A DNA stretch of 64,000 nt, taken from positions 134,508 to 198,507 of the forward strand of contig JAVJQW010000011.1 in assembly GCA_040218735.1 (NCBI GenBank), written 5' to 3'. The notes below the pieces were generated by a model. The model ran no database searches. It saw nothing but the letters and a program-made list of their open reading frames with translations, and was not told where the DNA came from. Positions 1 through 21,279 of this stretch are shown here, one piece after another. Position numbers and translations under genes: made by a program. Position 1 is the first letter of the stretch; each line of letters starts with the position of its first letter. This DNA is from Deltaproteobacteria bacterium. Its GTDB lineage: Bacteria > Myxococcota > Kuafuiibacteriia > Kuafuiibacteriales > Kuafuiibacteriaceae.

Positions 1-2419
1 CGGCGACGACTTCATCACGCCGACGTGCATTGCAACCCAGCTTGCGGGCGCCGAGTACTGCGGGCGCCGCAACGATCTCGAGCTCACCGAGACCCCCTGC
101 ACCCTCGACCGCGAGTGCATGCAGGGCCTCGTGTGCGTGAAGAGCGAGCCGTCCCTCCCGGGTGTCTGCGCGCCGCCGTGCGGCGCCGGCTGTGATCCCG
201 ACAAGACGTGCCGCACCACCCTCCGCGGCGACGTCTGCCTCAGCCGCGACTGCGCGTGCCACGGCGAGACGGTGCCCGAGGGGACGCGGAACCTGATGGC
301 CGAGGCGCTCGCGAACGTCGACATGACGAGGTGCAGCGCCATCTGGGACACCTTCGCGTTTGCGAACCTCCCGAAGGACCTCCTCCTCGACCCGTACCGG
401 CTCAGCTGGTTCGACGACATCCACAACGAGCCGCTCCGCGGACCCGACTTCGCGAAGGGGGTCGTGCGCGACCTCGACGCCGCCGCGGAGGACGACGGGA
501 TGGCGCCGCCGCGCCGCGCCGCGCGCATGGTGGAGCGGCTCGCGGAGCTGATCGACTTCCCCGCGAACGGGAGCGCCCCCGGGATGCTCGATCCGGTCGA
601 GCCGCTGACCGAGGCGATGGTGGATCTGATCAACGCTACCGGCGGCAACCCGGACCGCGCCGCGATCCTCGCCGACGCGGCGGACGTCCCGATGGATCTT
701 CAGCTCGCGCTCGCGGAGGTGCTCGACGCCATTCGTCGCGCGGACGCGAAGCAGAAGCTGGCCGTGCCGAACGCGAACAACCGCAACAACCTGTACGACT
801 TCGGCGCCGCCTTCATCGCGCCGCGCGCGGATCGGTTCGGCCTCAACGTCGCGACGCCCAACACCCAGCGGCTCCTCAACGAGGACATCCCGTACGGCGA
901 GTTGTACGGCGCGCAAGTCGACTTGCTCGACGCGATCGGCATGGCGGCGCTGCACCGCTTCGCCGCGACGCCGAGCACCACCGCGACCGCCGCGGCGACG
1001 TACGTGTTCGTCCAGGACACGCCGATCGGCCGCGTCGCGATCTCCGACGGCGAAAACGGCGTGCACACCGACGACGCCCCGGACGGCTGGGCGCTCCTCG
1101 TCGACCTCGGCGGCGACGACCTCTACCGAGTCCCCGCCGGCGGCAACGTGAACGCGACGAACTCGGTGTCGGTGCTCATCGATCTGAGCGGCGACGATCG
1201 CTACGGCTACGTCGAGGTCCCGCACCCGCTCGACGACATGCGCCTGGTGTCGGACGCGGGCGGCCGCTACACGCCCACCGCGGGCCCCGACGAGGACAAC
1301 GGCCCGACGAGCTTCTCCGAGACCCCGCGTCAGGGCGGCGGCCGCATGGGCACTGCGACGCTCGTCGACCTCGGCGGCGGCGACGACGAGTACCGATCGC
1401 TTCGGCTGTCGCAGGGCACCGGTGTGTTCGGCACCGGCGTGCTCGTCGACGACGACGGCGACGACCTCTACCTCGGCGAGGCCGCGATGCAGGGCGCCGC
1501 GGCGTTCGGCATCGGTCTGCTCTTCGACGGCGGCGGCAACGACGAGCGCCGCGCCTACCAGTTCGCGCAGGGCTTCGCGTACGCGCGCGCGGCGGGCGCG
1601 GTCTACGACGTCGCGGGCGACGACTTCTACTTCCTCGACCCCGGCGATCCGGACGCGGGCGGCGACCCGCTGTACTACTCGGCGCAGCGTCCCGGTCGCG
1701 CGAACTCTTCGCTCGGCCAGGGCTTTGCGTTCGGTCGCCGCGCGGACTTCACGGACCGCGCGTTCATGAGCGGCGGCGTCGGCATCCTCGTCGACGCGTC
1801 GGGGAGCGACCGCTACGACGGGAGCATCTTCGTGCAGGGCGGCGGGTTCTGGTTCGGCACCGGCATCCTCGCCGACCACGAGGGTGACGACGCCTACGAC
1901 GCGCTCTGGTACGCGATGGGGACCGGCGCACACTACGCGCTCGGCTTCCTGCTCGAGGGCGCCGGCAACGACACCTACGGCGGCGCGCTCCCGCGCGTGA
2001 ATGTGACGATCGCGGGCGCGCACGACTACACGGCGGCGTTCCTGATCGACGAGTCGGGCGACGACGTCTACAACGGCTCGCGCATCACGCTCGGCGCCGG
2101 CAACGTGAACGGCATCGGCTTCTTCGTCGACAACGCGGGCGACGACGAGTACCGCCCGCGTACCGCCTACGGCGTCGGCAACGCGGCCCTGTCGGAGAAC
2201 ACCGACGCGGGCAACGCGCGCCGCAAGGTCCGCAGCGTCGGTGTGTTCATCGACGCGGGCGGCACCGATCTGTACGAGGTGAACGGTATGCCGCCGGAGG
2301 CGAACCTCGGCAACGATCAGACCTGGCGCCAGGCGCAGAACATGGACCCCGCTATCAACCGGAACGAGCGCGGATCGGGCGTCGATGGCGTCGGGGAGTC
2401 CACGCTCCACGCCCGCTAA
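1..2419 (+). CDS. Secreted tandem-repeat protein, 5'-partial. The frame is open from position 2; the ORF track starts at 119. It has a Cys-rich N-terminal region followed by about 12 copies of a ~25-aa repeat built on hhhDxxG(D/N/S)DxY.
   Basis: Frame 2 has no stop from nt 2 to 2419. Repeats read directly in the translation: LVDLGGDDLYRV, LIDLSGDDRYGY, LVDLGGGDDEYRS, LVDDDGDDLYLG, VYDVAGDDFYFL, LVDASGSDRYDG, LADHEGDDAYDA, LLEGAGNDTYGG, LIDESGDDVYNG, FVDNAGDDEYRP, FIDAGGTDLYEV. Codon usage is consistent with the rest of the window. No family is recognised by eye. Confidence 0.6.
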   Translation, partial: GDDFITPTCIATQLAGAEYCGRRNDLELTETPCTLDRECMQGLVCVKSEPSLPGVCAPPCGAGCDPDKTCRTTLRGDVCLSRDCACHGETVPEGTRNLMAEALANVDMTRCSAIWDTFAFANLPKDLLLDPYRLSWFDDIHNEPLRGPDFAKGVVRDLDAAAEDDGMAPPRRAARMVERLAELIDFPANGSAPGMLDPVEPLTEAMVDLINATGGNPDRAAILADAADVPMDLQLALAEVLDAIRRADAKQKLAVPNANNRNNLYDFGAAFIAPRADRFGLNVATPNTQRLLNEDIPYGELYGAQVDLLDAIGMAALHRFAATPSTTATAAATYVFVQDTPIGRVAISDGENGVHTDDAPDGWALLVDLGGDDLYRVPAGGNVNATNSVSVLIDLSGDDRYGYVEVPHPLDDMRLVSDAGGRYTPTAGPDEDNGPTSFSETPRQGGGRMGTATLVDLGGGDDEYRSLRLSQGTGVFGTGVLVDDDGDDLYLGEAAMQGAAAFGIGLLFDGGGNDERRAYQFAQGFAYARAAGAVYDVAGDDFYFLDPGDPDAGGDPLYYSAQRPGRANSSLGQGFAFGRRADFTDRAFMSGGVGILVDASGSDRYDGSIFVQGGGFWFGTGILADHEGDDAYDALWYAMGTGAHYALGFLLEGAGNDTYGGALPRVNVTIAGAHDYTAAFLIDESGDDVYNGSRITLGAGNVNGIGFFVDNAGDDEYRPRTAYGVGNAALSENTDAGNARRKVRSVGVFIDAGGTDLYEVNGMPPEANLGNDQTWRQAQNMDPAINRNERGSGVDGVGESTLHAR

Positions 2420-3817: not shown

Positions 3818-5212
3818 GTGTGTGGCGTGTTCGGCATCTGGTCCCATCCGGAGGCCGCCAAGCTGGCGTACCTGGGCCTCCACGCCCTCCAGCACCGCGG
3901 CCAGGAAGCCGCCGGGATCGTCGCGGCGGGCCGTGAAGATCAGCGCTACGCCCGGCACCTCGGCCGCGGCCTCGTCGCCGACGTCTTCACCGAGACGACG
4001 CTCACCCGCCTCGCCGGACAGCACGCGATCGGGCACGTCCGCTACTCGACCGCGGGGGGCACCGGGCAGGAGAACGCCCAACCGTTCTCGGTCCAGACCA
4101 GCAAGGGCCCGCTCGCGCTCGCGCACAACGGGAACCTCGTCAACGCCAAGGAGATCCGCGAGACACTCGAACGCGAGGGCGCCATCTTCTCGACGCCCGG
4201 CGACTCCGAGGTCTTCGTCCACCTCCTCGCGCGGGCCCGCGCGCCGCGCCTCGTCGACCGCGTCCGCGAAGCCGCCGCGCAGGTCATCGGCGCGTACACC
4301 CTGATCATGATGCACGCGGGCGGCATGATCGGCGTGCGCGATCCGGAGGGCTTCAGGCCGCTCGTCCTCGGCGAGCTCAACGGCGCCCACGTCCTCGCGA
4401 GCGAGACCAGCGCGCTGGAGCTCATCGGCGCCACGTTCCTGCGCGAAGTGAAGCCGGGGGAGATCGTCTCCATCGACAAAAACGGCGTGCACAGCGAACG
4501 CCTCGTCCACGCGCCCGACGCCCGCCCCTGCTCGTGTGTCTTCGAGCTCGTCTACTTCGCGCGCCCGGACAGCTCGATCTTCGAGCGCAGCGTCTACGAA
4601 GCGCGCGTGAAGATGGGGAAGCACCTCGCCGAAGAGCAGCCCGCCGAAGCCGACCTCGTCGTGCCGGTACCGGACTCGGGTGTCCCCGCCGCGCTCGGGT
4701 TCGCGGAGGCCTCCGGCATCCCGTTCCGCCACGGCCTCCTGCGCAGCCACTACGTCGGCCGCACGTTCATCGAGCCCGAGCAGTCGATCCGCCACTTCGG
4801 TGTGAAGCTGAAGCTCAGCCCGATCCGCTCGGTGCTGGAGGGCAAACGCGTCGTGGTCGTCGACGACTCGATCGTGCGCGGCACCACCAGCCGCAAGATC
4901 GTCGGGATGCTCCGCAGCGCGGGCGCGAAGGAGGTCCACCTGCGGATCTCGTCGCCGCCGTCGCGCTACCCCTGCTTCTACGGCATCGACACCCCCACAC
5001 GCACCGAGCTCATCGCCGCGCAGAAGTCCGTCGAAGAGACGCGCGACTTCATCACCGCCGACAGCCTCGGCTACCTCTCGGAGGCGGGCCTGCACGCGGC
5101 GGCGAACGACGCCGAGCAGGAGCGCTTCTGCAACGCGTGTTTCACCGGTCGCTACACGTCGGGCCGCGAGCTCATCGAGCCGCGCCTCGTCCAGCTCCCG
5201 AGCAACGCGTAG
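3818..5212 (+). CDS. purF: Amidophosphoribosyltransferase (glutamine-PRPP amidotransferase).
   Basis: N-terminal (M)CGVFGIWSHPEAAKLAYLGLHALQHRGQEAAGIV with the catalytic Cys at position 2. GTG start. PRTase-domain motifs VVVVDDSIVRGTT. A C-terminal Cys cluster CNACFTGRYTS suggests the Fe-S type. Confidence 0.95.
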   Translation: MCGVFGIWSHPEAAKLAYLGLHALQHRGQEAAGIVAAGREDQRYARHLGRGLVADVFTETTLTRLAGQHAIGHVRYSTAGGTGQENAQPFSVQTSKGPLALAHNGNLVNAKEIRETLEREGAIFSTPGDSEVFVHLLARARAPRLVDRVREAAAQVIGAYTLIMMHAGGMIGVRDPEGFRPLVLGELNGAHVLASETSALELIGATFLREVKPGEIVSIDKNGVHSERLVHAPDARPCSCVFELVYFARPDSSIFERSVYEARVKMGKHLAEEQPAEADLVVPVPDSGVPAALGFAEASGIPFRHGLLRSHYVGRTFIEPEQSIRHFGVKLKLSPIRSVLEGKRVVVVDDSIVRGTTSRKIVGMLRSAGAKEVHLRISSPPSRYPCFYGIDTPTRTELIAAQKSVEETRDFITADSLGYLSEAGLHAAANDAEQERFCNACFTGRYTSGRELIEPRLVQLPSNA

Positions 5213-5215
5213 CCG

Positions 5216-8095
5216 TCACCACTCGAGCGGGTGGCCCGCGATGTCGTCCTTGGACGTGGTCACGAAGACCTGCGTCGCGCCGCCGAGGTAGGCGAGCATC
5301 TGGGCGAGGAGCTTGCGTTTCTTCGCCGAGAACTTCGTGAAGGGGTCGTCGAAGAGCACCGGGATGCGGCGCTCGCGCACGATGGCCTCCACGAGGCAGA
5401 ACCGCAGCGCGGCGTCGACGAGGTCGAGCTGCTCCCCCTCGAGCTGCGTGTACGCGGTGGATTCGTCGGCCGCGGTGTAGAGCGTGACCTCGCCGCGGGG
5501 GCCAAAGGAGGCCGTACGGAAGTGACCGTCGGTGAACGCGACGAGGTACTGCCCGAGGCGGCGCTCGATCGCCTGCCCGAGGTCGTCGACCTGGCGCTGG
5601 AGGACGTCGACCGCCGCCTGCATCAGGTCGCGCGACCGGTCGGGGATCATCGCGCCGCCCGAGCCGTCGTAGGTACCGACACCGTACCCGCCGCTTCCGC
5701 CGCCGCCGCCGCCGTAGCCGCCCACCGCGAAGTAACCGCTCGCGCCCTGCCCGCCCGACGAGTCGGACCGCCCCGACGACGACGCGCCGTAGCCGGAACC
5801 GTAGCCGTCTTCGTCGTCATCGTCCTCTTCGACCAACGATCCACCGCCGAAGTCGAACATCGCGCGCGCGTTGCTGTCGGCGTTGGGGATCGGCTGCTTC
5901 GGTACCGGCGGCGCGGGCTGCGGCTCGCCGGGGTACGCCTTCGTGATGATGCTCGGCTCGCGCGCGAGGGGATCGGCGGGCGCCGACTCGTTCGTCTGCG
6001 AGAACTCGCGCGGATCGATCGGCGTGACAAACGTCGAGAACGACCGCGGGCGCGCCGTGCGCAGCTCCGGGACGTCCGACGCGACGTCCGGTGCAGGCAG
6101 CGGCGGCGACGAGGGGAACGACGGGAGCTTGGCCCTGACCCCGGGCGAGCTCGCGAGGGGATCCGGGTTCTCGAAGTCGCCGGTGCGTACACCCGGGATG
6201 TCGTCGCTCTTGATCTTGCCGAGATCGTCCGTCGAGAACCGAGGCACGTCCCCGGTTCGCACGGGGAGGTCCCGCGTCGGCGGTGACGCGGGTGTGCCGA
6301 CGATCGATCCTCCGCGTGGACGCGGCACCGGTGCGCCGCTCGCCCCACGTGGCAGCGGCGCGCGGACTCCACTCGCCGCCCTCGGGATTGGCGTGCCCGG
6401 GACACTCGTCGCGCGCGGCGGCGCCCCGCCCGGGATAGGCGTGCCGACGATGGAGCCGGTCCGCGTCCGCTCCGGCGGTGGGAGGTCCGGCGTCCCGACG
6501 ATCGAGCTCGCGCGCTGCTTCGGTTCACCGAGATCCGTCGCGAGGCGATCGATGCGGCGGTTCAGCGTGTCGACCGAAAGCAGCGAGCCCGCCCCCGCCA
6601 TGACATCGGCCTCCAGCGCCTCGAGGCGCCGCTCGATCGCGGTGAGCTCCGCGGTCGCGGAGCTCAGCTCCGAGTCGCGCATGAGCGACGCGAGGGTCTC
6701 CTCCGCGATCATGCGTTGGTGCTGCACGCGCTCCTGCGCTTCGAGGCGTTCGAGGAGCGCGGCCGGGGAGTCGACGTCGAGCTTGGTCATCAGGCGCTTC
6801 GTCGCGCCGGTGTCGAGGTTGTGCTGTTTCTCCAGGCGCGTGAGTCGGTCCTTCGCGGCGGTGTGTCGGACGGCGCGCCGGGCGCGGCCCTCGAGGTCGG
6901 AGATGAAGCGCAGCGCCGAACCACCCACGACCAGCGCGCACGCGACATTGAGCAGCGCGAGCATCGGGGCGGCGAGCACCCCGGCCAGCACGAGGAAGCC
7001 GACGACGCCCAGCAGCCCGCCGAGGAAGTACGGATCCTTCTCGAGCGGTTGGATGAACGCGTTGCGCTCCTCCGCTTCGAGCGCGATCAGCTCGTCGTCG
7101 AGTCGCGCGCGGTCGTCCATGAACTTGGCTTCGAGCTCTTCGTAGTGCCGCAGGCGCTCGGTGAATCCGCTCGGGAGGTTCTGGAGGTCGTCGCCGGGGG
7201 CGTCCTGTTCGATGCGCTCGAGCTCCGCCTTCACGCGCGACACCCGCTCGACCTTCTCGGCGAGCTCGAACTTGCGGTGGTTGAGCTGGTCGATCTCGTC
7301 CTGCGCCCGCTCGGACCGCACCAGCGTCTCGAGCTGCCCCTTGAGCTTGGCGAGCTCGGCGCGCGCCTCCTCCTTGGAGGCCTTCTTCTTCTCGGGCGTC
7401 GGGGCCGCGGAGCCCGGATCCTCGAGCTCGGACTGCACCAGCGCGTTGGTGACGTTGAGCGAGGAGCCGAAGGTCCCCGGCATCACGCCGCTCATGTGGG
7501 AGAGCGCGCGCGGCGGCGCGGCGCCCAGCGCGCTGTCGGGGCGCGCCATGACGCCGGAGAGGTGGTGGTGCTGCATCCCCCCCGCGAGCCCCGGCGCGGA
7601 GGGTGCGGGGGCGTTCGACATCAGCGGCGCGCCGCTCTTGGTGCGCGCGCGCTCCAGCCTCGACGGCATCGACTCCGGCGAGAAGACGAAGAGGCGCTCG
7701 TAGGAGACCTCGTCCGGGAGGTGCTGCTGGACGCGTACGTAGTTGGCGGCGTCTTTCGTGACGTCGGTGAACAACGTGTACTGCTTCGTCGCCTGGTCGA
7801 ACTTGTAGAGCTTGATCGCTCCGCTGTCCGCCTCGCGGATCATTCGGTACGTGACCTTGTCGCGACCGAAGAACGTGAGCGCCGCGCGCGACCGGTCGGC
7901 GCGCGACATGACGAGGTGTGCGGTCGCGTTGTGCCGCGCGGGGTCCGCGAAGAGCGTGTGATAGAAGGCGTCGAACAGAGCGGTGCCCAGCGCGCGATCC
8001 GAAGGATGCGCGACGTTCAGCCCGGGCTTCATGCGAAGCCGGACCAGCTCCGGAAAGCCCTTGATGCCCTGGAGCGCGAGCTCGACGACGATCAT
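5216..8095 (-). CDS. Large membrane-anchored SMC/SbcC-like coiled-coil protein (959 aa). Walker A, ABC signature and Walker B are all degenerate. It carries Pro-rich and Gly/Tyr-rich low-complexity regions.
   Basis: The N-terminus MIVVELALQGIKGFPELVRLRMKPGLNVAHPSDRALGTALFDAF matches the SMC/RecF N-terminal pattern, but GPNGSGKS is replaced by AHPSDRAL. The C-terminus LEGEQLDLVDAALRFCLVEAIV...IPVLFDDPFTKF is a degenerate LSGGE/Walker B/D-loop. There are long coiled coils, one TM helix (FLGGLLGVVGFLVLAGVLAAPMLALL), SIVGTP repeats and a (GGYG)n tract. Confidence 0.7.
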   Translation of the reverse strand: MIVVELALQGIKGFPELVRLRMKPGLNVAHPSDRALGTALFDAFYHTLFADPARHNATAHLVMSRADRSRAALTFFGRDKVTYRMIREADSGAIKLYKFDQATKQYTLFTDVTKDAANYVRVQQHLPDEVSYERLFVFSPESMPSRLERARTKSGAPLMSNAPAPSAPGLAGGMQHHHLSGVMARPDSALGAAPPRALSHMSGVMPGTFGSSLNVTNALVQSELEDPGSAAPTPEKKKASKEEARAELAKLKGQLETLVRSERAQDEIDQLNHRKFELAEKVERVSRVKAELERIEQDAPGDDLQNLPSGFTERLRHYEELEAKFMDDRARLDDELIALEAEERNAFIQPLEKDPYFLGGLLGVVGFLVLAGVLAAPMLALLNVACALVVGGSALRFISDLEGRARRAVRHTAAKDRLTRLEKQHNLDTGATKRLMTKLDVDSPAALLERLEAQERVQHQRMIAEETLASLMRDSELSSATAELTAIERRLEALEADVMAGAGSLLSVDTLNRRIDRLATDLGEPKQRASSIVGTPDLPPPERTRTGSIVGTPIPGGAPPRATSVPGTPIPRAASGVRAPLPRGASGAPVPRPRGGSIVGTPASPPTRDLPVRTGDVPRFSTDDLGKIKSDDIPGVRTGDFENPDPLASSPGVRAKLPSFPSSPPLPAPDVASDVPELRTARPRSFSTFVTPIDPREFSQTNESAPADPLAREPSIITKAYPGEPQPAPPVPKQPIPNADSNARAMFDFGGGSLVEEDDDDEDGYGSGYGASSSGRSDSSGGQGASGYFAVGGYGGGGGGSGGYGVGTYDGSGGAMIPDRSRDLMQAAVDVLQRQVDDLGQAIERRLGQYLVAFTDGHFRTASFGPRGEVTLYTAADESTAYTQLEGEQLDLVDAALRFCLVEAIVRERRIPVLFDDPFTKFSAKKRKLLAQMLAYLGGATQVFVTTSKDDIAGHPLEW

Positions 8096-8267
8096 CGACC
8101 AGGTTCCTCGACCGCCCCGGACGAACGCGCCCGAGACACCTCGTCCGGGCTACGCTCGGGTCGAGGCGGACGCAGTAAAGCATCGATGCCGCCCGCCATA
8201 AACGGCGGACAGCGGCCTACACCGACGATGGGATGGTAAACGCGCCGTGCGCGGTGCGCGGCGGCGA

Positions 8268-8633
8268 TCAGGAGCGCTTCTGCCGGTGGTCGGTGCGCTC
8301 CTTGATGCGCGCCGCCTTACCGGAGAGGTTGCGGAGGTAGTAGAGCTTGGCGCGGCGGACCTGACCGTGGCTCTTGACCTCGATCTTGTCGATCGCGGGC
8401 GTCGCGAGCGGGAAGATACGCTCGACGCCGACGCCGTGGGAGACCTTGCGGACCGTGATGCTCGCCCGGACGCCGCCCTTGCGGTGGCGAATGACGATGC
8501 CCTCGAAGACCTGGATGCGCTCTTTGTCGCCTTCCTTGATCTTGGTGTGAACTCGAACCGTGTCTCCGATGCGGAGCGCCGGGTGGTCGTTGCGGATGTA
8601 GTTCTTTTCGATTTCGTCGATGACCGAGTTCAT
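8268..8633 (-). CDS. rplS: 50S ribosomal protein L19.
   Basis: [48 protein letters not shown]... ATG at 8631-8633. The 18 codons upstream in the ORF track look like a spurious extension. Confidence 0.93.
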
Positions 8634-8719
8634 GATCCAAGCTCCCTGGGAGAGAGGCGTTTTCTTCTCAGGCGGTCGTCGCGTCAAGAGAAAAAGTCCA
8701 TCGTCGGGCTTTCACGCCC

Positions 8720-9928
8720 TCACCGCTCCGACCGCAGCCGCTCCAGCTGACTCGCCATCGCCGCCAGCAGCGGGAGCCGGTTGAGGCGCGCCGTGCTCCG
8801 GACCGGCGGCAGCCAGCCCTGCACCGCGTCCTCGGGCGCCCCGAACGCCAAGACTCCCTCGCGAGGCGCCGCCACCGGCGCGGACCCGCGCGCCGCGCTC
8901 GAGCTGCCGTACAGCGGAGCGCCGATCGCCGCCCAGGTCGGCACGACCTCGATACGCCGCGACGTGACCAACCGCGCCCGCGGCGCCGGCCCACGGCGCT
9001 GACGGCGCGATCGCTCGTCCGGCACGTCCACCTCGATCGCCGGGAGCGCCGCGACCTGGTCGGGGTCGCCCCCCACCCAGATCAACCGCGACAGCTCGTA
9101 CGCGGCGGCGAGCCGCGCCAACGCGACCAGCGCCTCGGACGAGCGCGGCCCTGTGAAGGCCACCGCGGGACCCACGTCGGCGGTTGCACCGGGGAACGGG
9201 TCTTCGAGGCCCACCCCCTCGCGGCGCAACATCCGGCGCTCGTCTTTGGAGGCGCCGCGCGACACGAACAGATCGGGGCGCCGCGCCCGCGTCCGCCGCA
9301 GCGCCTCGGCGTACCGCCAGGCCTCGATGCGCTCGTGGTGCCCGGACGTGAGCACGTCGGGGACGTCGCGCCCCTCGAAGCTCGGCGGCCGGGTGTACTG
9401 CGGGTGCTCGAGGAGGCCGGCGGCGAACGAGTCGTGCTCGGAGGAGTCGGCGTTGCCGAGTGTTCCGGGGAGCAACCGCACGACGCCATCGATAATGGTC
9501 AGCGCCGCGTACTCCCCTCCGGTGAGCACGAAGTCGCCGAGCGAGATCTCGTCGTCGACGAAGTCACGAATCCGCTCGTCGAACCCCTCGTAGCGCCCGG
9601 CGAGCAGCGCGAGGTGGCCGCCGGCGGCCCACCGCGAAAGATCCTTCTGCGCGAGCGGCCGGCCCTGGGGCGACATCATCACCACCGGGCCCGCGCCCTT
9701 CGCGCGCACGGCGCGGATCGCCGCGACGAGCGGCTCGACCTTCATCACCATCCCGGCGCCGCCGCCGTAGGGGGTGTCGTCGACGGTGCGGTGTACGTCG
9801 GACGTGAAGGTGCGCGGGTCGATGAAGTCGACGTGCGCCGCGCCGCCCGTGATCGCCTTGCCCACCAACCCCGTCGCCAGCGGTCCGGCGAAGAACTCGT
9901 GGAACAAGGTGATGACGTCGATCTTCAT
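8720..9928 (-). CDS. trmD: tRNA (guanine37-N1)-methyltransferase TrmD, with an unusual ~150-aa Ala/Arg/Pro-rich C-terminal extension.
   Basis: MKIDVITLFHEFFAGPL...GGGAGMVMKVEPLVAAI...DFVLTGGEYAALTIIDGVVRLLPGTLG forms a SPOUT-knot TrmD core of ~250 aa. The same frame continues for another ~150 aa to the stop at 8720. Confidence 0.88.
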   Translation of the reverse strand: MKIDVITLFHEFFAGPLATGLVGKAITGGAAHVDFIDPRTFTSDVHRTVDDTPYGGGAGMVMKVEPLVAAIRAVRAKGAGPVVMMSPQGRPLAQKDLSRWAAGGHLALLAGRYEGFDERIRDFVDDEISLGDFVLTGGEYAALTIIDGVVRLLPGTLGNADSSEHDSFAAGLLEHPQYTRPPSFEGRDVPDVLTSGHHERIEAWRYAEALRRTRARRPDLFVSRGASKDERRMLRREGVGLEDPFPGATADVGPAVAFTGPRSSEALVALARLAAAYELSRLIWVGGDPDQVAALPAIEVDVPDERSRRQRRGPAPRARLVTSRRIEVVPTWAAIGAPLYGSSSAARGSAPVAAPREGVLAFGAPEDAVQGWLPPVRSTARLNRLPLLAAMASQLERLRSER

Positions 9929-10458
9929 TCGAGGTCCAGCAACCCCGGCAGCGGCGTGAGGCGGAGCCGCCCTTGTCCGTCGAGGCCGGCCACGAACACG
10001 TCGACGTACGGGACGAGCGCCTCTCCACCGTCCGGACGCTCGATCACCAGCATCGCCTGCGCGCCGTTGTCCCGTACGTCGGCGACGACGCCGAGGACGT
10101 CGCCGGTCTCGTCGTGGACGGCGGTCGCGCCGAACGCACGGTCCACGTCGTCGACGAGCGCGCCGGGGAGGTGGGCCGGATCGAGGTCGAGGAAACGACC
10201 GACGAGCGCTTCGGCGCGGCTCCGGTCGATGCCGTCGAGCCGCAGCACCGCGCGCGTCGGATCCACGAACCGCAGCGACGTGAGGACGAAGGTCTCCTCG
10301 TCACCCGCTTCGGTGGCGAGCGCGACGGACACCGGCCCGCGGACGCTCTTGGTCTTGTGGCTCTTGTCCCGGCGCGGCCGGAACAGGCGGACCGCCACGT
10401 GCCCTTCCAGGCCGTGGGGCTTACTGACGAGGCCCACCCGGTAGACGTAGGCGGACAC
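9925..10458 (-). CDS. rimM: Ribosome maturation factor RimM.
   Basis: VYRVGLVSKPHGLEGHVAVRLF plus a C-terminal PRC barrel. It overlaps trmD by 4 nt and sits in the canonical rpsP-rimM-trmD-rplS context. Confidence 0.88.
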   Translation of the reverse strand: MSAYVYRVGLVSKPHGLEGHVAVRLFRPRRDKSHKTKSVRGPVSVALATEAGDEETFVLTSLRFVDPTRAVLRLDGIDRSRAEALVGRFLDLDPAHLPGALVDDVDRAFGATAVHDETGDVLGVVADVRDNGAQAMLVIERPDGGEALVPYVDVFVAGLDGQGRLRLTPLPGLLDLE

Positions 10459-10470
10459 GGTCGGGGGGAG

Positions 10471-10701
10471 CTACTCGATGATCTCGAGCGTGGAGCGCTT
10501 CTGCACCTTCATGGCTGCGGCCGACAGGATCGTACGCATGGCCTTCGCGGTGCGGCCCTTCTTGCCGATCACCTTGCCGAGGTCTTCCTTCGAAACCTTC
10601 AGCTTGATGATCGAAGCCTCTTCGTCGCCGAACTCCGTGACTTCGACGGTGTCGGGGGCATCGACGAGCGCTTTGGCGATGTACTCGATGAGGTCCTTCA
10701 T
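10471..10701 (-). CDS. KH-domain RNA-binding protein (UPF0109/YlqC-like).
   Basis: 76 aa with GKVIGKKGRTAKAMRTIL (GxxG KH motif). Located between rpsP and rimM, as in many bacteria. Confidence 0.85.
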   Translation of the reverse strand: MKDLIEYIAKALVDAPDTVEVTEFGDEEASIIKLKVSKEDLGKVIGKKGRTAKAMRTILSAAAMKVQKRSTLEIIE

Positions 10702-10719: not shown

Positions 10720-11199
10720 CTACTCGGACTTCTCGGCGTCGGTCGCCTCGGGCGCGGCCTCGCCTTCGGGCTTGGCTTCGGCGGGCGCGGCCTCTTCGGC
10801 CTTCGCCTCGGCGGCGGGCGCGGCTTCGGCCGCAGCGGCCTCCGCCTTCGGCTCGTCCTTCGGCGCGTCGGCCTTGGCGGCCTCCGCCTTCGGCTCGTCC
10901 TTCTTCGCCGGTGCGGCTTCGACGGGCGGCGCCTCGTACTTCGGCTTCGCCTGCGGGAGGACGTTGCCCTCCTTCTTCGCCTTCTTGATGAGGCTCTTCA
11001 CGGTCGGTGACGTCTGCGCACCCACGCTCAACCAGTAGTCGATGCGGTCCTGCTTGAGGACGAGCACTTCCTTCGCGGGGATGTAGTAGCCGAGGTTCTC
11101 GACGAACCGGCCGTCACGGCGTGCACGCTGGTCGGCAGCCACGAGGTGGTAAACGGGGCGCTTTTTGGTACCGGCGCGCGCGAGTCTGAGGGTCAGCAT
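10720..11199 (-). CDS. rpsP: 30S ribosomal protein S16 with a Lys/Ala/Glu-rich C-terminal tail.
   Basis: MLTLRLARAGTKKRPVYHLVAADQRARRDGRFVENLGYYIP, followed by an AEAKPK-type low-complexity tail. Confidence 0.93.
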   Translation of the reverse strand: MLTLRLARAGTKKRPVYHLVAADQRARRDGRFVENLGYYIPAKEVLVLKQDRIDYWLSVGAQTSPTVKSLIKKAKKEGNVLPQAKPKYEAPPVEAAPAKKDEPKAEAAKADAPKDEPKAEAAAAEAAPAAEAKAEEAAPAEAKPEGEAAPEATDAEKSE

Positions 11200-17130: not shown

Positions 17131-18317
17131 GTCTTCACCATCGCCAGGGCGCCCTCGCGGTCCACGATGCGCCGCTCCAACACCGCGTCGTCGACCGCGC
17201 GCAGCAGATCCTTGAAGTGCGGACCGGGCGCCATCCCCAACGCCTTGAGATCGGCGCCCGTCAGCATCGGACGCGCCGGCAGCGGGTCCGCCGCGATCGC
17301 CGCGACCGCCGCGTCGAGGCGTCCGAGCGCCGTGGACTCGTTCGCGCTGACGAGGAAGACCCGCAGCCGCGCGACGTCCTCGTCGGCCGCGATGCGCACT
17401 ACGTCCGCGGAATCCGGCGAAGCCGCGTCACGCAACCGCGCCGCCTGCGCGTGCAACGTCATCGCGCCGCGGATCTGATCGCGGGAGAGCTTCAGCGCGC
17501 GCAGGTCGTCCTCGATCGCCGCCGAGTCGACCGACACGAGCGCCCACGCGACGACGTCACGAACGTCCTCGTCGAGCGGTTCACGCGCCGCCGCGAAACG
17601 ATCGAACGCCGCGGCGGAGGCGTCACGCACGAACGGCAACACGTGCGGCAGCAGCGTCGTCGACGCCAACATCCGCAGGCCGTCCCCCGGCCGCACGGAG
17701 CGAAAGATCCCCGTGAGCTCCTGGTTGATGCGCTCCGCGCTCACCGTCGAGATGTGCGGCGCGTTCGCGCGGATCGCCGCGAGCGTCGCGTCCTCGATTT
17801 CTAGCCCGAACCGCACCGCGAAGCGCACCGCGCGCAGCATCCGCAGGCGGTCCTCCGCGAAGCGCTGCGCCGGGTCCCCCACCGCACGCACCACCCGGCG
17901 ATCGAGGTCTTCGCGCCCCCCGACGTAGTCGAGGATCTCGTCGGTACGCGGGTCCATGAGCAGGCCGTTGATCGTGAAGTCGCGCCGCTTCACGTCCTCG
18001 ATCTTCGACTGCGAATAGGACACCGCGTCCGGCCGACGGCCGTCGGAGTAGTCGCCGTCCTCCCGGTACGTCGCGACCTCGTACTCCCGATCGCGCGGCC
18101 ACAGCACCTTCACCACGCCGAACGCCGCCCCGACCTGCACGGTGCGCCGGAACAGCTTCGACACCTGCTTCGGCGTCGCGTTCGTGACGATGTCGTAGTC
18201 CTTCGGCTCGACGCCGAGGATCGTGTCGCGCACGCACCCGCCCGCGAAGAACGCCTCGTACCCTGCGTCGCGCAGCACCGCGGCCACCTCGTCGGCGCCG
18301 GTCCTCAGGTGGGTCAT
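17127..18317 (-). CDS. cca: CCA tRNA nucleotidyltransferase / poly(A) polymerase family (class II NTase with HD-like C-terminal domain).
   Basis: AFFAGGCVRDTILGVEPKDYDIVTNATPKQV...RRDFTINGLLMD are NTase head motifs. Confidence 0.88.
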   Translation of the reverse strand: MTHLRTGADEVAAVLRDAGYEAFFAGGCVRDTILGVEPKDYDIVTNATPKQVSKLFRRTVQVGAAFGVVKVLWPRDREYEVATYREDGDYSDGRRPDAVSYSQSKIEDVKRRDFTINGLLMDPRTDEILDYVGGREDLDRRVVRAVGDPAQRFAEDRLRMLRAVRFAVRFGLEIEDATLAAIRANAPHISTVSAERINQELTGIFRSVRPGDGLRMLASTTLLPHVLPFVRDASAAAFDRFAAAREPLDEDVRDVVAWALVSVDSAAIEDDLRALKLSRDQIRGAMTLHAQAARLRDAASPDSADVVRIAADEDVARLRVFLVSANESTALGRLDAAVAAIAADPLPARPMLTGADLKALGMAPGPHFKDLLRAVDDAVLERRIVDREGALAMVKT

Positions 18318-19699
18318 CAGCGGCCGTAGACGATCGCCGCCGAGCGCGGCTGGTAGCGGCGACGCAAGACGATCTCGCTGTCGCGCTCCGTGTACGTGTC
18401 GACGGGGTCGGTCGGATAGAGCGACGTGCTCAACGCCGGCGCGTCGGTGATCGCACGACCGACGACGACGGTCAGACCCGGCGGCGATTCTTCACTCCCG
18501 CGCGCGGGGATCAGGACACTCGTGCCCGCGCCGTCCACGACCGCGGAGAGCGGGTTCTCGAGGGTGTCGCCGAGGACGTTCGACTGCACGCTCGGTTTGC
18601 CGTCGGTCTCCAGGTAGAGGAACAGCGCGACGACGCGGTCGAGGCGGCCCGTGGTCTCACGCACCGCGATGACCGAGGACAGGCCGTCGGCGTACGCGGC
18701 GACGTTCCCCGTCGCGTCCCCCCCCTCGTAGGAGATCGCGTTGCCGTTGCCGAGCTCGACCGCGGTCACGCGATTGCTGCCCTGCGAGGTGAAGTAGACG
18801 GTGTCGCCGCCGCCGCGCAGGCCGACCCCGCCCGGCTCCGCGACCACGTTGCGGGCCGAGACGTCCATGTCGCCGACGTCGATGAACAACGTCCCCGGCT
18901 CCTGGTCGATCACGAACACGGCGTCGTCTCCGTCCGCGGCCATCGCGCCGTCGAGGAAGCGCCCACCGACGCCCTGCGCGAAGCGGCCGAGGTTGGTCCC
19001 GGCGTCGACGTCGGCGAAGGAGATCAGGTTGCCGCCGCCGATGACCGCAACCGGGCTGCCCTCGGAGGCGAGCGCGAGCTCCTGCGGGCCGTCGAGCTGG
19101 ATGGACGTGAAGCCGTGGTCCGCCAGCGAGATGACCCCGAGGTAGCCGACCGCACCGATCTCGTAGGTGACGAGCATCTGTTTGCCACCCCGCGCGGAGA
19201 CCCCGCGCGCCACCGCGCCCGCGGGGAGCTCGTACTTCGACACCAGCGCGCGCGTCACGACGTCGACGACGTAGAGCACACTCTCGGGCGCCGGCACGCC
19301 ATCGTTGCGGTCTTCGCCGTTGGCGTAGTGCGCGATGTACGCGAGGTTCCTGTGGAGCGGGAACGACACCGAGACGTCGCCTTCGCCGTCGAGCCGAAGC
19401 CGCTCGCCGTACGCGACGACGTTGCCGACCTCGTCGTAGCCGTACGCGCGCACGTCCACCGTCGCCGACTCCGCCGAGATGCCTTCGAAGGTCGCGGTGC
19501 GCGTGGAGAGATCGAGGTCGCGGATGACGTCGTCACCCGTCGCCGACCCCTCCACCACGACACGCACCGAAGCGAGGTTCGCGGACTCGTACGGGTTCAG
19601 GATCGCGACGGCGGACGTCGTCAGCTCGACCGAGATCGACTTCGTCGACTCCCCGCACGCCGCGAGCGCCAACAGGGTCAACAGCGCGCAGCGTTTCAT
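18317..19699 (-). CDS. Lipoprotein with repeated beta-strand-rich units (possible beta-propeller).
   Basis: Signal and lipobox MKRCALLTLLALAACG. Repeated DG/VG-containing strands. It overlaps the cca start codon. Confidence 0.6.
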   Translation of the reverse strand: MKRCALLTLLALAACGESTKSISVELTTSAVAILNPYESANLASVRVVVEGSATGDDVIRDLDLSTRTATFEGISAESATVDVRAYGYDEVGNVVAYGERLRLDGEGDVSVSFPLHRNLAYIAHYANGEDRNDGVPAPESVLYVVDVVTRALVSKYELPAGAVARGVSARGGKQMLVTYEIGAVGYLGVISLADHGFTSIQLDGPQELALASEGSPVAVIGGGNLISFADVDAGTNLGRFAQGVGGRFLDGAMAADGDDAVFVIDQEPGTLFIDVGDMDVSARNVVAEPGGVGLRGGGDTVYFTSQGSNRVTAVELGNGNAISYEGGDATGNVAAYADGLSSVIAVRETTGRLDRVVALFLYLETDGKPSVQSNVLGDTLENPLSAVVDGAGTSVLIPARGSEESPPGLTVVVGRAITDAPALSTSLYPTDPVDTYTERDSEIVLRRRYQPRSAAIVYGR

Positions 19700-21279
19700 T
19701 CGGCCGGCCTCACGTAGATCTCGTCGATCCCCACGCTCGCGCCATCCGACAGCGCGGGCAAGAACCGGTAGCGGAACGTCGCCGTCTTCACGGCGTCCGG
19801 GATGGTCACCACGACGCGACCGGCCCGCCAGTCGAGTGTGCTCTGCGAACCGAGCGTCAGCCCGTTGTCACGCCGCGACGTCGGCGGGAAGACCGCACGA
19901 CTGCCGTCGACGAGCGTACCGTCGACCCAGCTCGAGTCCTGGCCACAGTTGGCGCCGCAGAACTGCACGACGACCTCCTGCGGGGCCGTCTCCCACTGCG
20001 CGGGATCCGTGCCCTGCTCCGCGACCTTGAACGTCACGCCGACGTTGAAGCCGACGTAGTCGAACCGCAGCTGCATCGGGCCGGCGGCGGACAGGTCGAT
20101 CGCCGGGGACGTCAGCGCCTGCTCCAGATCGAAGAGTTGCGCGCGGTCGTAGTTGCGCGGCGTCGGGTAGCAGCCGTCGTCGCCGAGCGCGAGGCAGCGG
20201 TTGCGGAAGTCCGCGCACTCCGCCGTGCTCATCATCGCCGCCCGACAGTTCGCCGACTCGCCGCAGGAGATGCAGTCGGTGCAGACGTTCGCGGTGAGGC
20301 ACATCGTGTCCACGCACATGCCGCACTCCGTCGAGTTGGGGTTCGCGCACGGCCCGCCGCAAGTCGTGTTGCGGCACATCGCCACCGAGGTGTCGCAGTC
20401 CTGGCAGACGGTGCACGCGCGCCCGGCCGCCTGGGCCTCACACGAGACGAGCCGGTCGCCGATCGTGTCGGGCGGCGCGTTCGGGCAGGCGTCACACGCC
20501 GTGCAGACGCTCGAGCACTCACTCGGCGGGGTCGCCGGGCACGACAACGGCTGCGGCAACGACCACAGCCGGTCCGGCGCGCCCGGGCACGTCGCGAGGG
20601 TGACGTTCTGTCCAGAGGGCGGCGGGTTCGCGAGGCAGTCGAGGCAACACGCGCACGCCTTGCAGGTGAACGACGTGTCCGCCTGTCCCTTCGGCGAAGC
20701 GGCGCGATACCGCAGCCACACGAAGTTGTTCCCGAGCGAAGCGGTGCCGGCGCAGCGCTCGTCACCGAGCGTGCACCCCGCGACACCGAGCGTCGCGATC
20801 TTGGTGAGCGGGTTCGCGATGTTGGGCTCGTTGGGGTCGGCCTGTGGGGCGACGAAGCCGAGCGTGGTGAGGTCGACGAACGTCTCCCCGTCCCGGATCT
20901 CGAAGCTCTCGTAGTGGAAGGCGCAGCGCCCCTCTACGCACTCCTGGCCGGCGCCGCACGCGTTGGTCGGGCAGCCCGTGCGGCAGCGGAGGTTCTCGCA
21001 GATCGGTATCTGCGGCTGAGGGTCGCCGACGTTGACACACGCCTCGTCCAGCTCGTCGCGGTCGATGACGCAGTCCGAGTCCTCGGTGCACGCGCGCAGG
21101 CATCGGCCGTCGAGGCACGTGAGGTTCGAGAAACCTTCGTCGATGCAGTCCTGCGCCGTCTGACACTCGAGCTCGGTGACGACGACCTTCGGCGCGCACG
21201 TCGGGTCGTCCGAGGAACAGCCGAGGAGCCCCGCGGTCAGGAGCGCGGCGAGAGGGACCGCGAATCGCATGGCGTTCAA
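19696..21279 (-). CDS. Cysteine-rich secreted lipoprotein (multiple CxxxC/EGF-like modules).
   Basis: MNAMRFAVPLAALLTAGLLGCSSDD, with more than 50 Cys in spaced modules (CQTAQDC, CLDGRC, CRTGC...). It overlaps the next gene by 4 nt. Confidence 0.6.
   Translation of the reverse strand: MNAMRFAVPLAALLTAGLLGCSSDDPTCAPKVVVTELECQTAQDCIDEGFSNLTCLDGRCLRACTEDSDCVIDRDELDEACVNVGDPQPQIPICENLRCRTGCPTNACGAGQECVEGRCAFHYESFEIRDGETFVDLTTLGFVAPQADPNEPNIANPLTKIATLGVAGCTLGDERCAGTASLGNNFVWLRYRAASPKGQADTSFTCKACACCLDCLANPPPSGQNVTLATCPGAPDRLWSLPQPLSCPATPPSECSSVCTACDACPNAPPDTIGDRLVSCEAQAAGRACTVCQDCDTSVAMCRNTTCGGPCANPNSTECGMCVDTMCLTANVCTDCISCGESANCRAAMMSTAECADFRNRCLALGDDGCYPTPRNYDRAQLFDLEQALTSPAIDLSAAGPMQLRFDYVGFNVGVTFKVAEQGTDPAQWETAPQEVVVQFCGANCGQDSSWVDGTLVDGSRAVFPPTSRRDNGLTLGSQSTLDWRAGRVVVTIPDAVKTATFRYRFLPALSDGASVGIDEIYVRPAE

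Follow-up and report, generated by a model that had tools for sequence, protein, structure and literature searches.

Among the SMC-like (structural maintenance of chromosomes) proteins of bacteria, SbcE (YhaN) of Bacillus subtilis carries a conserved, hydrophobic, proline-containing and insoluble central domain between two regions of heptad repeats (PMC2811018). It keeps a deviant Walker A motif, its arms are ~300 amino acids (aa) long, its gene lies beside the nuclease gene sbcF (yhaO), and together with the nuclease SbcF it serves the repair of double-strand breaks and competence (PMC2811018). In Rad50 and SbcC, the head is split into an N-terminal and a C-terminal lobe, with a long antiparallel coiled coil between them. 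Here we analysed 64,000 nucleotides (hereafter the window; G+C content ~69%) of a Deltaproteobacteria bacterium assigned to the Myxococcota, located on contig JAVJQW010000011.1 of assembly GCA_040218735.1. An open reading frame (ORF) on the minus strand of this window, at 5216-8095, translates into 959 aa followed by a stop. We propose, with a probability of about 0.6, that it encodes an inner-membrane-anchored protein of the Rad50/SMC class that is no longer an ATPase and whose static head acts as a tether or scaffold with a nucleic-acid partner. An earlier note on this DNA had called the architecture unusual; such a statement needs qualification, since SbcE already combines helical regions with a hydrophobic, proline-containing centre (PMC2811018). 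Compared by description, SbcE/YhaN is the closest described precedent for the family reported here.

The ORF is a real gene under purifying selection. A GAGGAA sequence resembling a Shine-Dalgarno site precedes the ATG at 8095, and the beginning of the protein, 'M(I/L)xVELALQG', is common to almost all retrieved homologs in the alignment. The gene and the two lobes of its predicted head are located as follows:

5216 to 8095, minus strand: complete coding sequence of a predicted membrane-anchored Rad50/YhaN-like pseudo-ATPase (ORF, 27 homologs, ratio of nonsynonymous to synonymous substitution rates (dN/dS) of 0.08-0.31 against the closest ortholog).
7616 to 8095, minus strand: N-terminal head lobe, aa 1-160, isoelectric point (pI) 9.7, colinear with the N lobe of Rad50; AlphaFold2 (AF2) predicted local distance difference test (pLDDT) mostly >90, dN/dS 0.077.
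5219 to 5650, minus strand: C-terminal head lobe, aa 816-959, colinear with the C lobe of Rad50; AF2 pLDDT >90, dN/dS 0.159.

Relationship to Rad50 becomes apparent only with a profile. The profile search that the earlier note had proposed as a check remains below threshold with the single sequence: Pfam and NCBIfam gave sub-threshold hints at most, the match to SMC_N (PF02463) scoring 15.3 bits (E 0.014) against a gathering score of 40, no SMC model of NCBIfam was hit, and Rad50 chains of the PDB appeared at E ~1. The top PDB match of the single sequence, to protein A repeats, was rejected as a chance match over ~26 aa. Pfam searches with all 27 close homologs (the close set A1, 37-100% identity) found no family either. 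A profile built from these 27 homologs, on the contrary, retrieved Rad50 heads as its top matches in the PDB, the best being 3aux (M. jannaschii Rad50, E 7.4e-5) and the next six being further Rad50 sequences. Stretches 1-98 and 755-841 of the profile align colinearly with the N-terminal and C-terminal halves of the Rad50 head.

Structural models point in the same direction. In the AF2 model computed with the homolog alignment, pLDDT exceeds 90 for most of aa 1-160 and aa 820-959, the full-length model having a predicted template modelling score (pTM) of 0.43. Foldseek returned 39 hits for this model at E<=1e-3, and all 39 listed are Rad50, SMC, MukB, JetC or Lamassu chains, save the integrative model 9a6c. 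Similarly, the Myxococcus ortholog P0268, modelled with 64 sequences, reached a mean pLDDT of 87 with its elements in the same order as in the 959-aa protein, and gave 102 Foldseek hits at E<=1e-3, of which those listed are nearly all SMC-class. As whole Rad50 heads superpose on this model across both lobes (template modelling score of 0.60-0.71, target-normalised), the two lobes appear to be assembled into a head in P0268. The protein is therefore predicted, from profiles and models, to have a bipartite head of the ATP-binding cassette (ABC) type with a helical insertion between the lobes. The SMC/SbcC-like character of the termini, put forward in the earlier note, is supported by profile and fold, with lobes of ~160 and ~145 aa instead of the ~60 aa that had been suggested.

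Constraint is also strongest in the head. In the comparison with the closest ortholog (L001; deeper pairs were saturated and left out), dN/dS rises from the N lobe (0.077) and the C lobe (0.159) to 0.19-0.31 in the arms and hairpin and 0.24-0.31 in the disordered linkers. Charge differs along the protein: basic in the N lobe (pI 9.7, net charge +6), acidic in the arms, in the Gly/Tyr tract and in the C lobe, and close to neutral in the linkers. Since the most constrained part is a head that lacks the ATP motifs, this head must do something.

The positions at which these motifs are expected were compared with Rad50 in a HMMER alignment and in a motif table of the family:

7976 to 8017, minus strand: degenerate Walker A region, aa 27-40, NVAHPSDRALGTAL, facing GxxGxGK[ST] of Rad50 and of P-loop-intact orthologs; P-loop GeNGSGKSS in Rad50, artsdaalrra in the family consensus, AHPSDRALGT in the 959-aa protein.
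7688 to 7741, minus strand: near-invariant 'YVRVQQxLPDEVxFERLF' block, aa 119-136, from a column check of 27 homologs.
5399 to 5443, minus strand: degenerate signature motif, aa 885-899, LEGEQLDLVDAALRF, facing LSGGE of Rad50; LeGee in the family consensus, LEGEQ in the 959-aa protein.
5339 to 5365, minus strand: Walker B-like strand IPVLFDDPF, aa 911-919, in which Asp replaces the catalytic Glu; ilDEP in Rad50, lvddP in the family consensus, LFDDP in the 959-aa protein.
5252 to 5275, minus strand: H-loop position TQVFVTTS, aa 941-948, without His, facing 'QmiiiTHh' of Rad50; iiTHh in Rad50, vlTek in the family consensus, VTTS in the 959-aa protein.

Hence NVAHPSDRALGT stands at the Walker A position, and GxxGxGK[ST] is absent from the 959-aa protein. 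At the former position of the Walker A Lys, most members of the clade have an Arg, and the 959-aa protein and its four closest homologs have a Gly. The first Asp of Walker B is kept in the 27 homologs. The RVQQ block lies in the N lobe at the place expected for the Q-loop, and from this position it may be its equivalent. The three degenerate motifs reported in the earlier note (P-loop, LSGGE to LEGEQ, Walker B DE to DD) are all confirmed in the alignment with Rad50, and ATP hydrolysis has probably been lost in the 959-aa protein.

Two other explanations of these motifs have to be considered. A working nucleotide-dependent machine might use non-canonical residues, namely the Arg at the Walker A Lys site, the RVQQ block and the Walker B Asp, to run a cycle like that of SbcE or Rad50. 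Such a machine would fit the strong conservation of the head lobes, the retention of RVQQ and of the first Walker B Asp, and the presence of the Arg in most clade members. However, the glycine-rich loop that wraps the phosphate is wholly replaced, even the Arg has become Gly in the 959-aa protein and its four closest homologs, and there is also no GG in the signature, no catalytic Glu and no switch His, which makes this explanation very unlikely. As for gene decay, or an error of assembly or sequencing in a normal SMC-like ATPase, the missing motifs and nothing else speak for it, and it is already refuted by the intact frame, the dN/dS of 0.08-0.31, the high AF2 confidence in both lobes and the recurrence of the motif losses in hundreds of family members, including 27 close homologs whose assemblies are independent. 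Whether orthologs had kept Walker A was a question raised in the earlier note: the P-loop is absent in 27/27 close homologs, which rules out a sequencing error as the cause of its absence here.

The family is much larger than the close set. A word-indexed homolog search had suggested a tiny family of 27, which proved misleading, as an exhaustive hmmsearch with the A1 profile found 1,856 cluster representatives at E<=1e-3, 526 at E<=1e-10 and 269 at E<=1e-30. The matches listed are 600-1,000 aa long, with three matching stretches corresponding to the N lobe, to the hairpin and arms, and to the C lobe. Among 157 full-length representatives in the motif table, 22 have a canonical [AG]xxxxGK[ST] and ~135 do not. 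The P-loop-containing group (A3) aligns end to end with A1 in hhalign (probability 100, E 4e-97, 682 columns), as does the Myxococcus group (A2; probability 100, E 5e-76), and A3 itself matches Rad50 (E 1.8e-20), SMC (4e-10), RecF (1e-4) and RecN (1e-3). Several A3 members pass the Pfam gathering scores of SMC_N, AAA_23 or AAA_27; SMC_N is passed by the P-loop-intact orthologs P0083 (44.0 bits) and P0139 (49.6 bits). Together with the PDB profile and the fold search, the end-to-end alignment to P-loop-containing orthologs upholds the core notion of a membrane-tethered, SMC/SbcC-like protein with dead ATPase motifs.

Members of A3 present 'LSPATQD' at the LSGGE position and 'LDDP' at the LDEP position, and no family member of the motif table, P-loop-intact ones included, has LSGG or the catalytic Glu. 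As judged from these motifs, the canonical signature and the catalytic Glu are lacking family-wide, and the P-loop has additionally been lost in most lineages; the clustering of the family was done by the unweighted pair group method with arithmetic mean (UPGMA), which gives no number of loss events. The family is distributed in Myxococcota and in metagenome-assembled genomes (MAGs) of uncultured 'Deltaproteobacteria', and cultured Myxococcus harbour a 633-aa version. A record under the non-myxobacterial name 'Comamonas sp. JC664' (P0282) occurs in the otherwise myxobacterial match list.

In scans with the single sequence and with the 27 homologs, the family fell under no model of Pfam or NCBIfam, and its members are named 'hypothetical protein', 'chromosome segregation protein SMC', 'AAA family ATPase' or 'ATP-binding protein' in databases. 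The SbcE/YhaN paper was the sole related result of literature searches, none of which returned anything on the family as such; this rplS-linked membrane Rad50-like family is undescribed. Orthologs of 620-635 aa in Myxococcaceae (P0268, P0261, P0271, P0278, P0283, P0290 and others) are called 'chromosome segregation protein SMC' in NCBI/UniRef, which looks like a propagated misannotation because these orthologs have neither hinge nor ATP motifs. Similarly, a P-loop-intact member (P0069 / P0169) is annotated 'twin-arginine translocation signal domain-containing protein'; this looks spurious, since its match to NCBIfam TAT_signal_seq falls at aa 348-369, the start of the mid-protein hydrophobic hairpin.

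Orthology within this divergent family is supported by gene order. Upstream of the 959-aa gene, the window contains the following genes:

8268 to 8687, minus strand: rplS (ribosomal protein L19), immediately upstream (Pfam Ribosomal_L19, E 2e-48; synteny).
8720 to 9928, minus strand: trmD (Pfam).
9925 to 10458, minus strand: rimM (Pfam).
10471 to 10701, minus strand: khpA-like KH gene, an ORF read directly from the sequence.
10720 to 11199, minus strand: rpsP (Pfam).

Downstream lie purF, in convergent orientation, and then a HisKA_3 histidine kinase gene. In the spacer between rplS and the 959-aa gene (8096-8267, 172 bp), a G+C-rich inverted repeat is found at ~8190-8222 without a following T run; a scan of 5000-8800 for promoter and terminator consensus gave nothing above shuffle expectation, and none was called in 8096-8267. 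We compared 13 related loci from species-representative genomes, all from uncultured Myxococcota or 'Deltaproteobacteria' MAGs. The gene directly follows rplS in 12/12 loci that reach that far upstream, the 13th (L012) beginning inside the gene, and wherever contigs suffice the shared order is rseP, rpsP, rimM, trmD, rplS, the gene itself and a convergent purF. In Myxococcus, the order is rlmN, rpsP, KH, rimM, trmD, rplS, the gene, yraN and rsmI; in M. xanthus, the 633-aa gene would correspond to about MXAN_3550, judging by how far it lies from the encapsulin gene. More distant relatives (six loci, including four P-loop-intact ones) present (ffh), rpsP, KH, (rimM), trmD, rplS, the gene and (rnhB, yraN, rsmI), with rplS directly before the gene in 5/6 and not seen upstream in L022. 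As this position after rplS holds in all but one locus although the heads share only ~25% identity across groups, these genes are orthologs, and the ATPase motifs appear, from the sequences compared, to have decayed within one orthologous lineage.

The context of these loci bears on a possible role in DNA repair. The protein could be a repair factor of the SbcE/SbcC type that works with a distant nuclease or with RNase HII, its anchor positioning repair or DNA-uptake complexes. Rad50 proteins are indeed its closest solved relatives, and SbcE, with its hydrophobic central domain, pairs with the nuclease SbcF (PMC2811018). Some members are named 'uncharacterized protein YhaN' by JGI. Moreover, AAA_27 (PF13514, threshold >=22 bits), which we take to be the YhaN-type domain, is passed by the P-loop-intact orthologs P0083, P0123, P0126, P0129 and P0139 at 23-34.5 bits, the 959-aa protein giving no hit. 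In L017 (9082), L020, L021 (7060-7094) and L022, all distant relatives, rnhB (RNase HII) starts right at the stop of the gene or overlaps with it, an arrangement suggestive of translational coupling. Yet rnhB after rplS is a common arrangement in bacteria that do not have the gene studied here, and in the lineage of the 959-aa gene rnhB is not adjacent, purF converging instead. Furthermore, no gene of the Mre11/SbcD/YhaO type is adjacent at any locus examined, and a Rad50-like head with a dead ATPase would be unable to clamp DNA by the known mechanism. A repair factor of this kind appears improbable, albeit not extremely so.

Between the lobes, the remaining elements of the protein are:

7382 to 7615, minus strand: disordered linker 1, aa 161-238, rich in Ala, Ser, Pro and Gly (AF2 pLDDT<50 for aa 163-238; composition).
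7046 to 7381, minus strand: outgoing coiled-coil arm, aa 239-350, with helices 241-298 and 311-345 (AF2; composition rich in Glu, Leu, Ala, Arg and Lys).
6905 to 7036, minus strand: hydrophobic two-helix hairpin, aa 354-397, made of DPYF, a first predicted transmembrane helix (TM1), a Pro turn and a second (TM2) with Asn383 (hydropathy, AF2, conservation).
6524 to 6895, minus strand: returning coiled-coil arm, aa 401-524 (AF2 helices 377-438, 444-473, 475-502 and 508-522).
5651 to 6523, minus strand: disordered linker 2, aa 525-815, Pro-rich (AF2 pLDDT<50; length and sequence vary among homologs).
6290 to 6514, minus strand: four copies of R-x-x-S-[IV]-[VP]-G-T-P, aa 528-602 (regex scan).
5654 to 5860, minus strand: conserved FDFGGG, an acidic run, GYGSGYG and then a Gly/Ser/Tyr tract, aa 746-814 (alignment columns 1180-1300).

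At the apex of the coiled coil, hydropathy reveals a single hydrophobic stretch at aa 354-399 (~45 aa, mean Kyte-Doolittle >2), in which AF2 places one helix at 355-374 and another from 377 onward; the Pro at the turn between them is kept in nearly all 27 homologs. Neither helix contains a charged residue; an invariant D-x-Y-F precedes them and basic Arg/Lys residues follow TM2. This second helix is rich in small residues and contains Asn383, an invariant residue of the close set; the Myxococcus and P-loop-intact groups have an Asp ('ALLDIP') in its place. Over 185 compact family members, the length of the hydrophobic span is 45+-5 aa and that of the segments between hairpin and lobes 143+-14 and 152+-12 aa. 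Since this constant span sits between two near-equal arms, the anchor is best described as a two-helix hairpin at the apex; no CxxC zinc hook and no hinge were found in the 959-aa protein, which has the hydrophobic hairpin there instead. Covariation of arm lengths was dropped as a sign of antiparallel pairing, because the lengths hardly vary among members (r = -0.11) and only their near equality is shown.

The hydrophobic segment might also be a buried, soluble dimerisation core comparable to the hinge of SMC, in which case the protein would form a cytoplasmic filament or a cytoskeletal element. The central domain of SbcE is described as hydrophobic and insoluble only, and not as membrane-spanning (PMC2811018), and the location of the hairpin in the membrane is a prediction. 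Nevertheless, 45 aa with a mean hydropathy above 2, helices devoid of charges, and flanking DPYF and Arg/Lys are features of a transmembrane hairpin, and the length is constant over the 185 members, so that a soluble core seems quite unlikely.

Several details of the middle region in the earlier note had to be revised. In place of one TM helix, the model shows the hairpin described above, and in place of ~800 aa of coiled coil, helical arms extend only over aa 241-345 and 399-522, a total of ~230 aa, while more than one third of the protein (~370 aa according to AF2, at 163-238 and 525-814) is predicted to be disordered linker. The linkers sit at the two head-to-arm junctions, vary among homologs and are largely absent from the 633-aa Myxococcus ortholog. 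The SIVGTP-type repeats do exist, as the four copies listed above; the three closest homologs have 3-6 of them and homologs further away 0-1, and Tandem Repeats Finder detected no DNA-level array behind them. The Gly/Tyr tract is likewise present, at aa 764-812, and a GYGxGY motif occurs in 26/39 clade members retrieved; the term prion-like, however, was overstated for four [GS]Y[GS] motifs in ~50 aa, and a phase-separation-like label is at best possible.

With these elements, the family can be set against known systems. Like SbcC and Rad50, the latter giving its best PDB profile and fold matches, it combines a split head with an antiparallel coiled coil between the lobes. In contrast to them, the 959-aa protein has no Walker A, LSGG, catalytic Glu or switch His, its arms are only ~105-125 aa long, the hydrophobic hairpin replaces the CxxC zinc hook, and the gene is encoded in a trmD-rplS operon with no Mre11/SbcD partner adjacent. 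With SbcE/YhaN (COG4717, AAA_27), it shares by description the hydrophobic, proline-containing centre between two helical arms, and differs in its missing Walker A, short arms, two long disordered inserts, position after rplS and lack of a nuclease neighbour. Canonical bacterial SMC belongs to the same head fold class and follows the same coiled-coil principle, and many Myxococcaceae members bear its name in NCBI. Nonetheless, canonical SMC is ~1,200 aa long, whereas family members have 620-960 aa, no hinge domain and no ATP motifs; with the SMC models of NCBIfam, relatives reach <=45 bits against cut-offs of 567-729 and the 959-aa protein has no hit. Finally, the SMC-like defence ATPases (Lamassu LmuB, Wadjet JetC, Gabija GajA) are among the fold matches, and the P-loop regions of intact orthologs match the LmuB and GajA models of PADLOC weakly. 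PADLOC (LmuB, JetC, GajA, PtuA) gave no hit for the 959-aa protein or the Myxococcus P0268, and unlike defence systems the gene stands in a conserved housekeeping operon context without adjacent effector genes.

We therefore favour a membrane-anchored, ATP-independent tether or scaffold. The 959-aa protein would have degenerated relative to its P-loop-containing, YhaN/SbcE-like orthologs, whose genes likewise follow rplS directly and often precede rnhB. Its aa 1-160 and aa 816-959 would fold together as a Rad50-type head, from which two arms of ~105-125 aa each would leave and return, and the apical hairpin would lie in the cytoplasmic membrane with both protein ends in the cytoplasm, holding the head ~15 nm from the membrane. 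Because P-loop, LSGG, catalytic Glu and switch His are all gone, the head could not go through an ATP-driven cycle of engagement and release; being the most constrained part, with a basic N lobe and without motifs, it is most likely a static binding module. Pairing of hairpins through the conserved Asn/Asp and the small residues may, as a conjecture, replace dimerisation by hook or hinge. Through the linkers at the head-to-arm junctions, the protein would gain reach, multivalent contacts or phospho-regulation. The protein would connect the membrane to a nucleic-acid-containing partner, for which nucleoid DNA and the ribosome or RNA are the leading candidates.

Some points weigh against this tether. 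The assembly of the two lobes is taken from the model of the Myxococcus ortholog, not from that of the 959-aa protein itself, and loss of nucleotide binding is deduced from motifs. That the hairpin enters the membrane, and with which topology, is a prediction, and it could be re-entrant rather than spanning; its dimerisation is conjecture. For every member, the most likely role as tether or scaffold is derived from sequences and models. The context, in which translation genes (ffh, rpsP, rimM, trmD, rplS) are mixed with genes for nucleic-acid enzymes (rnhB, yraN), does not discriminate between the candidate ligands. A more specific proposal is doubtful, and we advance it as a speculation: in Myxococcota and their uncultured relatives, a housekeeping Rad50/YhaN-like anchor co-expressed with trmD-rplS would have turned, in most lineages, from a nucleotide-binding switch into an ATP-independent tether of the inner membrane to the nucleoid or to translating ribosomes, and the ~370 aa of phosphorylatable, Gly/Tyr-containing linkers gained by the clade would form a multivalent layer or condensate at the membrane.

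A few other features of the window are worth mentioning. TrmD (8720-9928, minus strand) has 402 aa, of which the Pfam tRNA_m1G_MT domain covers up to ~aa 218, leaving a C-terminal extension of ~180 aa without Pfam match. Its tblastn alignments span 373-431 aa in five related loci, which suggests that the extension is conserved there, and only ~235 aa align in L002, L007 and L008. Ribosomal protein S16 (10720-11199, minus strand) has 159 aa, with the Pfam domain at aa 8-64 and, beyond it, a long tail in which Ala, Glu, Lys and Pro abound. The ORF at 119-2419 (plus strand, 766 aa) contains many repeated 'GGxDxY' / 'G.DD.Y'-type motifs and has no Pfam hit at E<=1e-3. Two adjacent, overlapping ORFs on the minus strand, 18317-19699 (460 aa) and 19696-21279 (527 aa), are likewise without Pfam hit; both have lipoprotein-like N termini (…LAACGES and …LLGCSSD), and the second is very Cys-rich.

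If the more specific proposal made above were true, the family would represent a new SMC-superfamily-derived class of bacterial organiser, linking the membrane to the nucleoid or to the ribosome. Proteins of the SMC class are understood as ATP-driven machines, and a large, strongly conserved family that keeps the fold without the ATP motifs would indicate that this scaffold can be reused without its motor, a membrane hairpin standing in for the hinge. The occurrence of P-loop-containing and P-loop-less orthologs at one locus offers a natural series on non-cycling SMC heads. Labels such as 'chromosome segregation protein SMC', which are probably wrong, could mislead inferences on myxobacterial chromosome organisation that are drawn from genomes. 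Since members occur in the Myxococcus xanthus group, which is amenable to genetics, the tether that we propose would be directly testable.

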